Below the pieces are notes generated by a model. The model did not search any database and was not told where the DNA came from. It saw nothing but the letters and a program-made list of their open reading frames with translations. A stretch of 7,647 bases of DNA, from the IMG/VR virus record IMGVR_UViG_2690316243_000010, one strand, 5' to 3'. This DNA is from a virus (lineage: Duplodnaviria; Heunggongvirae; Uroviricota; Caudoviricetes). The position numbers and the translations under genes were made by a program. Below are positions 1,350 to 7,304 of this stretch, in pieces (the first letter of the stretch is position 1; every line of letters begins with the position of its first letter).

Positions 1350-2096
1350 TTACTTCACAACTCCCGGAAAGCTGACATTTGAACGCCAGCTATCCCAGTT
1401 AAACGTCACCCACCGACAACCGTTCATGGTCATGCGGTCCATAATCCTCTCACCAAGAAGCGTGCTCATTGCGGCATGATTCAGGTTTGTTAACATCCCG
1501 ACACTGCACAGTGATGCTGTCCGGCGATCAATTATCTGGTGCAATACCACCTGCTCGTTTTTCGTCTCCCGCTGAATGCCTATTTCATCCAGGACCAGCA
1601 AATCAACCCCGCAAAGCTCCTGTAAAAATTTTTCACCGGATTTGCCGTTGTCGTAGCTGTCATGCAACACGCTCATGACATCAGACTCGGTGACGATAAT
1701 CACGCTGCGCCCCTTCGCCATCAGCCGGTTACCCATCGCCGCTGCAAGGTGATTTTTCCCGGTGCCGGTTTTACCGCTGAACACAAAATTCGTGCACCCG
1801 GTCATCAGTTCGTCAGCTATGGATTTGGCCTGGCTCAGCGCGTATTTTTGCCCGTCGTTCTGCACCTGATAATTCGCAAACGAGCATTTGCTGTGCAGAG
1901 GCTGGATGCCCGAACGATTCAGGATTTTTTCCACCCGCAACTGGCGATTCTGGCGGTTAATCTCCTCGCTGCGTTTTCGTCCTTCAGCAAGTTGCCATTC
2001 CCGCCACTCCTCCACCGTCCGGTACGGTGGAACCGCCCCCTGTGGTGCAAGTCTGTGAATACGTTCAAGAACCCCGGCTGCCGCAATGTTTTTCAT
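1350..2096 (-). CDS. DnaC-like replicative helicase loader (AAA+ ATPase; YdaV-like; functional analogue of lambda P)
   Basis: 248 aa. Walker A region FSGKTGTGKNHLAAA and Walker B LLVLDEIG, plus a C-terminal WVTFNWDSWRSNV tail, all closely resemble host DnaC as I recall it. Start ATG at 2096..2094 lies 6 nt after the upstream gene stop, with AGGGGG inside the upstream coding sequence, so translational coupling is likely. Confidence 0.9.
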   Translation of the reverse strand: MKNIAAAGVLERIHRLAPQGAVPPYRTVEEWREWQLAEGRKRSEEINRQNRQLRVEKILNRSGIQPLHSKCSFANYQVQNDGQKYALSQAKSIADELMTGCTNFVFSGKTGTGKNHLAAAMGNRLMAKGRSVIIVTESDVMSVLHDSYDNGKSGEKFLQELCGVDLLVLDEIGIQRETKNEQVVLHQIIDRRTASLCSVGMLTNLNHAAMSTLLGERIMDRMTMNGCRWVTFNWDSWRSNVSFPGVVK

Positions 2097-2102
2097 GCCA
2101 CA

Positions 2103-3167
2103 TCACCCCCTGAATCCCGGCGGAATTTCGGTATCCGGTTCAGAAATATGATTCACACAACGCTGGTTGTTCGTGCCGCTTACCGGGAGCAACCAGGGGT
2201 TTTCAAAATTCCGGTCCGGCCCAAAAAACGTCGTCGCTCGCTGAACAAATTCCGTTCCCGCTTTCCCGGTCGCCGCCAGGTATCTCGCGTAACGCCTCAC
2301 ACCATCCAGCATGGTCTCTGGTGGCACCCCCTCGCGCAATCTGGCCTTCCAGGCACTGAATGCGGATTTCTTCGGGTTTGCCCCGGCACGCAACGGGTAT
2401 TCCCGCCAGACCTGTTCGAACACATCCGGATAATCCACTCGTCCCACAGGCTGCCCGGTGTTTTCCGGGGCTACCCGATCGGCTTCCCGCTGAATGGCGG
2501 AATCGGCTTCAGGCTGCTGCAGTTGGAGTGATTGCTCCGGCCTTGCGGTCATCACCTGCTGCACAGCGCCCGAATCGGCTTTCAGCGCATACGCTGAATC
2601 GGCTTCCGGTGTCGAGCCTGCTGGCTGACCAGGATTGACGGTCTGAACATCCCCTGCCTGGTTCGTGGCGTTTTTTACGCCATGGACCATAGTGTTTTGA
2701 TCTTCTTTATCTGTATCTTTATCTGTATCTGTCGTGACTCGTCGTGACATGTGCGTGACATTTCGTGACGCGCCGTGACAATCGCCATTTTGTTCCCGCT
2801 TTCTTTCCCTCTCTCGCTGCGCCCTCTTGCGCTCTGCAGGAGATTTTGCGGTTTGCGAAATATTGCCGTTGTCCTCTTTAAGCACCTGGCGTTTTTCCCA
2901 TCCAGTGATTAAATCACCATCAAGTACCCGCCCCTGCATCGTCTGCAAAATTGAATCAATTACCTCTTCTGTCACGTCGAGCGCACTTGCCAAATCTTCT
3001 GTCGTGACATCAATGTGACCTCGCGTGACATTTCGTGACGCGCTCACCAGGAGGTGGATATACACTGCCATCACTGTTGCAATTGGCTGCCCTGACACCC
3101 TGGCAATTGTTCGCCACTTAGGGTCATTTGGCATGTCATGCCATAATCTGAGCCAGGCGTTAGCCAT
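2103..3167 (-). CDS. Replication initiator, lambda O functional analogue (YdaU/DUF1376-like N-terminal domain with DnaT-like C-terminal domain), about 354 aa
   Basis: Minus-strand ORF immediately upstream of the DnaC-like gene. ATG at 3167..3165 is preceded by GAGGTGA. The ORF-track start is a GTG at 3173 that overlaps this Shine-Dalgarno, so the ATG is preferred. The C-terminal region (YPDVFEQVWREYPLRAGANPKKSAFSAWKARL...) looks like the DnaT/primosomal-type domain seen in phage initiators. The gene contains phased CGTGAC iterons (see repeat features), as lambda O contains ori-lambda. Confidence 0.85.
   Translation of the reverse strand: MANAWLRLWHDMPNDPKWRTIARVSGQPIATVMAVYIHLLVSASRNVTRGHIDVTTEDLASALDVTEEVIDSILQTMQGRVLDGDLITGWEKRQVLKEDNGNISQTAKSPAERKRAQRERERKREQNGDCHGASRNVTHMSRRVTTDTDKDTDKEDQNTMVHGVKNATNQAGDVQTVNPGQPAGSTPEADSAYALKADSGAVQQVMTARPEQSLQLQQPEADSAIQREADRVAPENTGQPVGRVDYPDVFEQVWREYPLRAGANPKKSAFSAWKARLREGVPPETMLDGVRRYARYLAATGKAGTEFVQRATTFFGPDRNFENPWLLPVSGTNNQRCVNHISEPDTEIPPGFRG
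2705..2728. repeat. 12-bp tandem direct repeat, two copies of CTTTATCTGTAT, AT-rich
   Basis: Directly seen: CTTTATCTGTAT at 2705-2716 and 2717-2728, immediately left of the first CGTGAC cluster. Encodes the TDKDTDKD low-complexity linker of the initiator. Confidence 0.8.
2733..2779. repeat. Iteron cluster A: five CGTGAC copies at 10-11 bp spacing (candidate prophage origin of replication)
   Basis: CGTGAC at 2733, 2743, 2754, 2764 and 2774. Helical-phase periodicity. Located inside the initiator gene. Confidence 0.75.
2971..3043. repeat. Iteron cluster B: CGTGAC-family repeats at 10-11 bp spacing, including an exact 20-mer shared with cluster A
   Basis: GTCACG (inverted) at 2971; CGTGAC at 3003, 3024 and 3034; TGTGAC at 3014. 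The 20-mer CGTGACATTTCGTGACGCGC at 3024-3043 is identical to 2754-2773. Confidence 0.75.
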
Positions 3168-4555: not shown

Positions 4556-4750
4556 ATGAGTACAGTCCTTTCCCCAATGGTTTCAGAATTTGAGACAGTT
4601 GAGCAAGAAAATAGTTACAACGAATGGCTGCGGGCCAAAGTAGCAGCAAGCCTCGCGGATCCCCGCCCGGCGATTCCGCATGATGAGGTAATGGCGGAAA
4701 TGGAACAAATTATTGCCCAAATTGCTGCTGCAACTCACAGAGGTGAATAA
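4556..4750 (+). CDS. paaA2: Antitoxin of the ParE-family toxin (PaaA2-like), 64 aa
   Basis: Small acidic protein. GAGGAG Shine-Dalgarno at 4541-4546. Stop TAA overlaps the toxin start (TAATG at 4748-4752). Sits immediately upstream of a RelE/ParE-fold toxin gene. Confidence 0.8.
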   Translation: MSTVLSPMVSEFETVEQENSYNEWLRAKVAASLADPRPAIPHDEVMAEMEQIIAQIAAATHRGE

Positions 4751-5040
4751 TGTTACCCGTTTTATGGCTACCATCTGCTCGTGATGATTTGCGCCAGATC
4801 GTAGCCTACATAGCTAAAGAAAATCCCGCGGCAGCACGCAGAATGAAAATTCGAATTGAAACATCCGTTTTGCCGCTCACAGAGCATCCTTACCTGTATC
4901 CTCCAAGCGAGCGAGTTCTTGGTCTTCGTGAAATTGTAACTCATCCTAACTACATCATCCTTTACCGAGTAACAGCATCAAGCATAGAAGTAGTAAATAT
5001 TGTGCATTCTCGAAGACAGTATCCAGGCAAAAACAGTTAA
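4750..5040 (+). CDS. parE2: ParE/RelE-superfamily toxin (ParE2-like), 96 aa
   Basis: Size, 1-nt overlap with the upstream antitoxin, and sequence character (basic C-terminal region ...IVHSRRQYPGK) are typical of ParE/RelE toxins. Followed by an intrinsic terminator. Confidence 0.85.
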   Translation: MLPVLWLPSARDDLRQIVAYIAKENPAAARRMKIRIETSVLPLTEHPYLYPPSERVLGLREIVTHPNYIILYRVTASSIEVVNIVHSRRQYPGKNS

Positions 5041-6427: not shown

Positions 6428-6746
6428 CGGTGATGAAAGGAAAGAGAAAATGTTGAATGTAGCTATTGAAAACCAGAACGGGTGGAATTATAGTGCACCT
6501 GCACCTTATAAAACGGGTGCCGGGCGTGGAAACCCGAACGTTACTCGAGCGCATAGCCGCGCTGAAGCGGTTTTTTTATGCGTAATGCACAGCTCCATTC
6601 AAATTATGGTGGGATGTGCAGGGCAGTCGCAAGACTGGCCGGGTTCTCGAGTGACCGGTATTTCCACCCCTGTACGTCTCACCACCCTTATGGTCGTGGA
6701 AAACCTCGGTGGTGAGTTAATTAACTTATCACTCGAGGATGCCATC

Positions 6747-7304
6747 ATGGCTACTATCCCTGCCCTTTCTCACCCTGACGTAACCATCGAAAATGGTCGC
6801 GCTGTCACTACGTCTATTGCGATCGCAGAGTTCTTTGGCAAGCGTCACGACAATGTGTTACGTGCCATCGCAAATACTGAATGCTCACCTGAATTTAACG
6901 CCCTCAATTTTGAGGACGTCACCTACACTGACGCCAAAGGCGAAAAACGCCCGATGTACCAAATCACCAAAAACGGCTTCGTTTTCCTGGTGATGGGATT
7001 CACTGGCAAAAAAGCCGCTGCATTTAAAGAAGCCTACATTGCTGAGTTCGATCGCATGGAGGCCGAACTGCGCCAGAATAACACCCCACCCACTGACAAA
7101 ATAATTCCAGGCGATGGCCGCACCCTGGTTGTTCACTTCGACGAACGCGGCAACATCAGATTCACCGAAACCGTTCCTGATGGCGCACGGGTCTGTACCA
7201 TGGAGACTTTCCGGTTTTATCTGGAAGAACAGGGATGGACTCTTGTTAACCGGGGCGCAATTAAAAATATGACTGTAGAGCAATTACTCAAAATTCATTG
7301 TTGA
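6747..7304 (+). CDS. Rha-family phage regulatory protein (Phage_pRha domain), about 185 aa
   Basis: ATG at 6747 with GAGGA Shine-Dalgarno 7 nt upstream. Sequence block AIAEFFGKRHDNVLRAIAN...MYQITKNGFVFLVMGFTGKKAAAFKEAYIAEFDRME is characteristic of Rha/ORF6N-type phage regulators as I recall them. The in-frame upstream extension to 6450 has a possible Shine-Dalgarno but non-protein-like composition, so the start is uncertain. Confidence 0.8.
   Translation: MATIPALSHPDVTIENGRAVTTSIAIAEFFGKRHDNVLRAIANTECSPEFNALNFEDVTYTDAKGEKRPMYQITKNGFVFLVMGFTGKKAAAFKEAYIAEFDRMEAELRQNNTPPTDKIIPGDGRTLVVHFDERGNIRFTETVPDGARVCTMETFRFYLEEQGWTLVNRGAIKNMTVEQLLKIHC

Follow-up and report, generated by a model that had tools for sequence, protein, structure and literature searches.

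A probable replication origin, with two iteron arrays, inside the initiator gene of a lambdoid-style Escherichia coli prophage

Why does one short hexamer recur in two phased clusters inside the coding sequence of a phage replication initiator? The gene in question lies in a 7,647-nt stretch of caudoviricete DNA (IMG/VR record IMGVR_UViG_2690316243_000010; hereafter the window, meaning the whole stretch that was analysed), for which a preliminary description, made from the letters alone, had proposed a prophage origin arranged like lambda ori within O. Our analysis indicates that the region is probably the replication origin of a lambdoid-style Escherichia coli prophage, located inside the gene of its own initiator. 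We propose that the core origin consists of an iteron array at the start of the initiator's linker, an AT-rich tract and a palindrome, and that the second array, in the coding sequence of the N-terminal domain, is a conserved accessory array for initiator binding (Table 1). The earlier proposal of an origin whose iterons lie in initiator coding sequence is supported by the identity of the gene, by the DnaC-like loader gene next to it and by selection at the DNA level. A literature search returned no description of an origin or of iterons for this initiator family, none of the database records examined annotates an origin at this gene, and existing annotation of the initiator reads just 'hypothetical protein' or 'phage replisome organizer'.

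Iteron arrays and the proposed core origin

Because the open reading frame (ORF) of the initiator is on the minus strand, the iterons read GTCACG in the orientation of the gene. On the plus strand, exact copies of CGTGAC start at 2733, 2743, 2754, 2764 and 2774 (spacings of 10, 11, 10 and 10 bp), which recovers the five copies at 10-11 bp spacing that the preliminary description had placed at 2733-2779, and the inverted copy that it had placed at 2971 is present at 2971-2976. Four further copies had been assigned to 3003-3039: three of these are exact (3003, 3024 and 3034) and the fourth, at 3014-3019, is TGTGAC with one mismatch, giving spacings of 11, 10 and 10 bp when it is counted. The clusters, described as about 230 bp apart, are separated by 224 bp (2779 to 3003), and the exact word that they have in common is real but is a 21-mer (2753-2773 = 3023-3043) rather than a 20-mer. 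CGTGAC occurs 10 times in the window against 3.5 expected, a count reached in 0 of 200 shuffles. The densest 50 bp holds five copies, whereas 1000 first-order Markov sequences yielded at most two copies of CGTGAC, and at most three of any hexamer, within 50 bp; shuffles and simulations thus rule out chance as the source of the clustering.

Table 1. Coordinates of the initiator gene, its repeats and the adjoining loader gene in the window
Feature	Position	Strand	Remarks
Initiator gene	2103..3167	minus	ATG at 3167, stop codon at 2103-2105; 354 amino acids (aa); from the ORF list and its translation
DnaC-like helicase loader gene	1350..2096	minus	6 bp past the initiator stop codon
Linker array, five GTCACG (gene strand)	2733..2779	minus	Gene-strand spacings of 10, 10, 11 and 10 bp
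AT-rich tract	2690..2732		A+T content 72% (window, 50%); A-rich on the gene strand; proposed unwinding element
Imperfect palindrome	2659..2689		TGGTTCGTGGCGT-TTTTT-ACGCCATGGACCA; far side of the AT-rich tract
Conserved basic helix	2784..2840	minus	aa 110-128, AERKRAQRERERKREQNG; just upstream of the linker array; from the AlphaFold2 model
Inverted iteron (CGTGAC)	2971..2976	plus	Encodes D64-V65-T66, the start of the predicted recognition helix
N-terminal array	3003..3039	minus	GTCACG at 3034-3039, 3024-3029 and 3003-3008; GTCACA at 3014-3019

The linker array encodes aa 130-145 (C-H-G-A-S-R-N-V-T-H-M-S-R-R-V-T), right after the N-terminal domain and at the start of the disordered linker. Its units of 10-11 bp have a 6-bp conserved core, variable spacers and no internal dyad. 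The AT-rich tract beside it contains the 12-bp tandem duplication that had been reported there (TCTTTATCTGTA twice, at 2704-2727), and the least stable 40-bp stretch of the gene starts at 2689, ranking 30th of 7370 within the window. Most homologues have (GATAAA/GATACA)n or purine-rich runs 3' of the linker array. Among near-identical E. coli prophages (loci L005-L085 and L137) the tandem copy number of the 12-bp GATAAAGATACA unit in this tract varies from about 1.5 to 6, so the length of the proposed unwinding element is polymorphic. On its far side, the palindrome recurs nearly unchanged in Shigella phage 75/02 Stx (TGGTCCATGGCGAAAAAATCGCCACGGACC), and a perfect stem of at least 6 bp within 130 bp past the array was found in 23 of 41 homologues versus 25% of control segments (Mann-Whitney p=6e-5). 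Scanning for promoters gave one weak promoter-like match in the linker array, on the non-gene strand and no more than in shuffled sequence, and an Rfam scan found no RNA family in the repeat region of the initiator.

The N-terminal array shares the orientation and phasing of the linker array and encodes aa 43-55 (A-S-R-N-V-T-R-G-H-I-D-V-T), comprising the end of the helix at 29-49 and the loop preceding the helix-turn-helix. The inverted copy, usually 26 bp downstream of this array, is found at the same position of the gene in about 15 homologues of iteron class 1 (nt 191, or 179 where the match starts 12 nt into the gene), and the D64 codon is GAC in 15 of 19 homologues. Several lineages have a GTCACGTGAC palindrome within the N-terminal array; the linker array is usually purely direct. 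No AT-rich tract was found beside the N-terminal array, where downstream palindromes were not searched for, and the DNA that follows it is ordinary coding sequence for the helix-turn-helix. In lineages such as L120, L135 and L166 the N-terminal array is missing and the linker origin is complete. The complete 46-kb genome of phage Tritos has no GTCACG clusters besides the two arrays, and the idea of another, oriR-like array at a third site was accordingly rejected.

Exchange between the arrays was also considered. Concerted evolution was discarded as a general rule, the longest exact match within a gene being merely slightly longer than that between genes (12.0 versus 10.1, 14.3 versus 9.6 and 11.9 versus 11.7). 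In individual lineages the pattern is suggestive of it, namely the 21-mer of the window and the lineages L114, L124 and L130. A separate case is GTCACGTCACGTCACG, an unusual run of overlapping copies at 5-bp intervals, which occurs in both arrays of a gene from Erwinia phyllosphaerae (L110; gene nt 159-175 and 411-427) and points to sequence exchange between the two.

Codon usage and covariation among homologues

The hexamer is translated in three reading frames, as TGT CAC G (C-H), G TCA CG (S-R) and GTC ACG (V-T). Codon usage was compared in 19 homologues from different species, in which the G+C content of the first 300 nt ranges from 41% to 65%. In the N-terminal array, V47 GTC, T48 ACG, G50 GGT, H51 CAC, V54 GTC and T55 ACG are each fixed in 19/19, and A43 GCG, S44 TCA and the AAT codon in 18/19. 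The third position of R49 is the sole free one and falls in a spacer. At invariant residues the mean relative codon entropy is 0.18 within the N-terminal array versus 0.83 elsewhere (Mann-Whitney p=1.4e-6, 19 species), and invariant residues elsewhere in the N-terminal domain use every synonymous codon. Eight genes of the GAACGC class gave a similar result, with a codon entropy of 0.10 in the array versus 0.69 (p=1.4e-5). Within E. coli prophages, variants of the linker array affect six spacer positions versus two hexamer positions, each of the two in a single locus, and one further locus has lost a copy from the N-terminal array. Taken together, the three reading frames and the frozen synonymous sites indicate that the iterons are under selection as DNA.

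An initial search of viral contigs returned near-identical E. coli prophages only, and no diversity. Isolated coliphages, Tritos and Evi among them, carry the gene at 97% identity, and 1647 of 5426 complete E. coli genomes contain it with a coverage of at least 80% and in up to four copies per genome. The replication module as a whole occurs in prophages across Gamma- and Betaproteobacteria and beyond, and scanning one genome per species located the two-array GTCACG layout in about 25 species of Gamma- and Betaproteobacteria. More distant homologues carry GTAACG, (C)GAACGC or GTGACG in place of GTCACG, again at 10-11 bp spacing and in both zones.

Covariation between the zones was scored in 72 genes dereplicated at 95% nucleotide identity, counting as an array at least two copies of one of these four hexamers per zone. 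The linker array is the commoner of the two (63 versus 58 of the 72 genes). Both zones contain arrays in 57 genes, and in all 57 the dominant hexamer is the same in both: GTCACG in 24, GTAACG in 8, GAACGC in 24 and GTGACG in 1. The other 15 genes comprise six with a linker array only, one with an N-terminal array only and eight with other motifs. The N-terminal array also yields a class-specific peptide, namely ASRNVTRGH in phages with GTCACG, ASNATERGR in those with GAACGC, or else CNAVKRGE, R49 and G50 alone being constant.

The initiator is built of modules. In Pseudomonas phage phita81A just aa 1-138 are shared (69.5% identity), and the host, the C-terminal domain and the neighbouring genes all differ; the phita81A gene nevertheless contains four GTCACG copies at the N-terminal position and four at the linker, followed by an A-rich tract. 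Stx phage 75/02, conversely, shares only aa 156-354 (about 65% identity), and its initiator gene has no GTCACG and instead (GAACAG)n at the equivalent linker position (L004, 2460-2560). The recombination junction between the N- and C-terminal modules seems to fall at the AT-rich tract. Comparison with the iterons of related prophages, which the preliminary description had named as a check, thus bears out its proposal: the arrays travel with the N-terminal domain across hosts, and the hexamer changes jointly in both.

The initiator and its comparison with known replicons

The initiator matches phrog_3729 'replication initiation protein' (E=3e-250) and, at 2e-5 and 4e-4, PHROG 'replisome organizer' families; NCBI names its family 'phage replisome organizer'. 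The whole protein matched nothing in Pfam at E<=0.01, Phage_rep_O included. When the N-terminal domain was searched alone, HTH_Crp_2 was the sole Pfam match besides PF09681, and judging from that below-threshold alignment the initiator is likely a member of the PF09681 replisome-organizer family. An AlphaFold2 model built from 44 homologues resolves the N-terminal domain (aa 1-128) with confidence, placing helices at 2-10, 16-25, 29-49, 56-63 and 67-77, a beta-hairpin at 81-88 that completes a winged-helix-like unit, and the basic helix. The linker (about aa 129-220) is disordered and the C-terminal domain helical; the disorder of the linker accounts for the low mean predicted local distance difference test score (pLDDT, 60) of the whole protein. 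The N-terminal domain is thus predicted to be a winged-helix DNA-binding fold.

Residues that discriminate the iteron classes lie at 46, 48, 51 and 66, in an indel at 101-110 and at positions 114-121 of the basic helix. The differences at 46, 48, 51 and 66 are encoded by the iterons themselves and are forced by that coding. In the basic helix, positions 114-121 read RKReQRER, RAKxWRE or RVxxYRE according to class, and R113 and R118 are invariant across all classes. Lineage L120 is informative here: its linker iterons and basic helix are both of class 3, but it lacks the N-terminal array and its loop peptide differs, so that this peptide is dispensable for specificity. Given L120, the iteron-encoded loop is unlikely to be the reader of specificity itself, and comparison of the classes makes the basic helix, itself a candidate for DNA contacts, the better candidate for iteron specificity.

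Two further features of the protein were observed outside the N-terminal domain. The C-terminal tail ISEPDTEIPPGFRG (aa 340-354, 2106-2150) is kept in homologues with otherwise unrelated C-terminal domains and weakly matches the C-terminus of DnaT, a primosomal protein (NF002770, E=0.0016). Docking of the helicase, or of the helicase loader, is a possible role for this tail. In the disordered linker, three copies of GAATCGGCTTC(A/C)GG at 2500, 2572 and 2596 (window 2500-2609) encode a repeated P-E-A-D-S, and similar copies are present in Stx phage 75/02 (L004, about 2600-2700).

The protein encoded by the next gene matches PF01695 IstB_IS21 (E=3e-19), NF009043 (499 bits) and phrog_50 'DnaC-like helicase loader', with a below-cutoff match to DnaC (E=1.9e-88). 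The order of genes, namely a divergent cI-like gene, then cro-like, CII/YdaT-like, initiator and DnaC-like loader, is that of a lambdoid early-right operon. In phage Tritos (L138, 32105-33638) the same initiator with both arrays is followed by a gene for a 140-aa hypothetical protein, and so the module also exists without a loader of its own.

In lambda ori, too, a palindrome follows the AT-rich tract. The lambda origin lies in the middle of O, with iterons first and the AT-rich tract after them (PMC7466680). The locus described here resembles lambda ori/O, and likewise Stx phages P27 and 933W, in that the origin lies mid-gene in the linker stretch that follows the DNA-binding N-terminal domain; as in lambda, cro and cII-like genes precede the module, and the gene for the helicase loader is next to that for the initiator. 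However, lambda iterons are sites of about 19 bp with internal dyad symmetry that are bound by initiator dimers, whereas here there are 6-bp cores at 10-11 bp without a dyad; the lambda loader is lambda P rather than a DnaC/IstB-like AAA+ ATPase; and lambda lacks the second array in the coding region of the N-terminal domain. Because the initiator is not a homologue of lambda O, as seen from the missing Phage_rep_O match, the likeness is one of layout only. The lambda arrangement put forward in the preliminary description stands as a layout; the N-terminal domain, the type of iteron and the loader all depart from those of lambda.

A second parallel is the experimentally proven oriL of phage SPP1, in gene 38, where the organizer G38P binds direct repeats ('AB boxes') next to an AT-rich unwinding element in a system reconstituted in vitro (PMC5737612, PMC6316719). 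The sequence of SPP1 gene 38 has GAAACGACA-type repeats followed by A-rich GATAAACAACAATGATAACAA, mid-gene as here and likewise with an AACG core, and the helicase-loader gene that adjoins the organizer gene in origins of the SPP1 type also has its counterpart here. A profile search with SPP1 gene 38 matched Phg_2220_C alone and gave no sequence homology between its N-terminal domain and that of this initiator. No N-terminal array is evident in gene 38. SPP1 does have a second G38P-binding region, oriR, but it lies about 13 kb away with an AT-rich element of its own, whereas the second array described here is 230 bp away, intragenic and without such an element.

Two separate arrays of the same phased repeats, serving one initiator, are familiar from iteron replicons such as P1 (incC/incA), F (incB/incC), R6K and P4 (ori/crr). 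In iteron plasmids one of the two arrays lies next to the unwinding element, whereas the other has a regulatory or auxiliary function. The likeness to these replicons lies in the use of the same hexamer in both arrays (57/57 genes, four classes), from which shared recognition may be inferred. The arrays of iteron plasmids, in contrast, occupy non-coding DNA flanking rep, kilobases apart in P4, whereas both of the present arrays are translated. Their Rep proteins have a WH1-WH2 fold: a Foldseek search of the initiator model against the PDB returned no Rep/RepE/pi-type match, the model having a single winged-helix-like unit plus the basic helix. Origins of the SaPI elements have two sets of short, 6-8-bp iterons and an initiator encoded by the mobile element. 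In SaPIs, however, the two iteron sets enclose the AT-rich region and rep precedes the origin; here normal coding DNA separates the arrays, and the tract is outside them. What is new at the present locus, on the comparisons above, is a second, conserved and co-varying array in the coding sequence of a folded domain, with its synonymous sites frozen.

Proposed mechanism, alternatives and significance

In the mechanism that we propose, the N-terminal domain of the initiator, with its predicted winged helix and basic helix, would bind neighbouring iterons along a single face of the DNA, those of the linker array being spaced by one helical turn. The resulting complex would melt the AT-rich tract, and the C-terminal domain would then recruit the DnaC-like loader together with host DnaB. 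We infer the identity of the iteron binder, the melting of the tract and the role of the second array. It is quite possible, though short of probable, that the N-terminal array acts jointly with the linker array, by oligomerisation of the initiator and looping of the DNA, and so strengthens or controls firing. By analogy with oriR of SPP1 (PMC6316719), the second array could possibly also act as a fork barrier that sets the direction of replication. A wider and more doubtful proposal is that the locus is dual-coding: 40 nt would encode a helix-loop of the folded N-terminal domain and at the same time a regulatory binding array that dictates the residues there, the two arrays would form an initiator-bridged loop that sets firing and initiator dosage, and iteron class would define compatibility groups among prophages that share a cell.

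Several observations weigh against the interpretation of the region as an origin of this kind. The alignment of the N-terminal domain to PF09681 (Phage_rep_org_N) scores 16.6 bits (E=0.008, profile positions 1-119 of 121), under the cutoff of 23.3, and the Foldseek search of the model against the PDB yielded non-significant winged-helix regulators only, all at E>=1.3. Because iteron classes coincide with clades, the perfect covariation amounts to about three independent switches only, and because both arrays are inside the gene, they would travel with the N-terminal domain whoever binds them. Six homologues lack the N-terminal array, which is therefore dispensable in some lineages. The two arrays show significant helical phasing for a period of 10.0 (R=0.65), but homology confounds this signal, as does variation among genes in whether they have the first linker copy, and indels in the linker occur in multiples of 9 bp; we consequently dropped inter-array phasing as evidence, since shared ancestry confounds it. 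Finally, the literature search found no binding, footprinting or replication experiment on this protein family.

With these points in mind, one may ask what else the N-terminal array could be. The strongest case is for an array that is mainly an autoregulatory operator or roadblock: initiator bound within the first 170 nt, possibly as dimers on direct-plus-inverted copies, would limit transcription of initiator and loader and would have no direct part in firing. We consider this unlikely but worth weighing, since the array is located in the 5' portion of the gene, where transcription heading for the origin would cross it; it includes the inverted copy and, in several lineages, the GTCACGTGAC palindrome, where the linker array is usually direct only; the division resembles that between iterons and inverted-repeat operators in iteron plasmids; and where homologues lack the N-terminal array, their linker origin is still complete. 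Against it, there is no promoter at the N-terminal array, and its copies are of the same direct, helically phased kind as those of the origin array. Autoregulation and cooperation with the linker array are compatible. A duplicated origin, which the preliminary description had offered beside two initiator-binding arrays as a meaning of the split, would imply two origins about 260 bp apart, each complete and firing on its own. The shared 21-mer, the shared reading frame and the similar peptides (ASRNVT...VTT) do suggest that one array was derived from the other. However, the AT-rich tract of low stability adjoins the linker array alone, and the linker array occurs alone in six homologues and the N-terminal array alone in one. 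As the N-terminal array has no AT-rich tract, precedes helix-turn-helix coding DNA and is missing in some lineages, it is not a duplicated origin, a reading to which we give very little credence; of the two meanings offered, two initiator-binding arrays is the one that fits.

The remaining alternatives concern what, if anything, reads the repeats. It is improbable that both arrays are bound by another factor, a host protein or another phage regulator, for transcription control or packaging. With the arrays inside the gene, co-inheritance with the N-terminal domain alone cannot identify the binder, but the arrays persist in phita81A despite a different host, a different C-terminal domain and different genes on all sides. 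Moreover, closely related hosts differ in the hexamer, GTCACG in Escherichia and GTAACG in Enterobacter and Pantoea, and a conserved host factor is therefore disfavoured; the array, AT-rich tract and palindrome also occupy the position within the gene that they have in SPP1 oriL and lambda ori (PMC7466680). Least credible of all is that the repeats are a by-product of a needed peptide motif (SRNVT, VT) and have no function as DNA. The ASRNVT and VTT peptides do recur, conserved, in both zones, but the one hexamer is translated as C-H, S-R and V-T, the iteron spacing of 10-11 bp is no multiple of 3 and the linker peptide falls in a predicted disordered region. Synonymous choice is frozen, with TCA, CGA and AAT retained in GC-rich Pseudomonas, whereas the invariant residues alongside draw on their full sets of codons; both tests of codon usage contradict the peptide explanation, and we reject it.

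Features of the window outside the replication module are of separate interest. Rfam matches to isrK (61 bits) and C4 antisense RNA (77 bits), both exceeding the gathering score and placed at 6501-6577 and 6602-6689, lie at the 5' end of a plus-strand ORF (6450-7304) with Phage_ASH and Phage_pRha domains, which looks like a c4/ant antirepressor immunity element of the P1/P7 type. Between the immunity region and this Rha/Ash gene, a plus-strand ORF for a ParE-family toxin (4750-5040; PF05016, E=2e-17) directly follows a small ORF (4556-4750), and the two are likely a toxin-antitoxin pair. Near the left end, positions 112-309 are a masked run of 198 N, across which ORF calls are meaningless.

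The proposed origin would provide a precise origin annotation for a module present in 1647 of 5426 complete E. coli genomes. It would also be an especially clean case of overlapping codes, in which an array of binding sites freezes synonymous positions and dictates residues inside a folded domain, and the second array would offer a compact system for the auxiliary roles of iterons, such as looping, autoregulation and fork direction. The four natural iteron classes could be used for specificity swaps. They would further predict which co-resident prophages cross-activate or titrate each other's initiators, which may bear on prophage induction, on replication like that of Stx phages and on the in-situ amplification of neighbouring host DNA.

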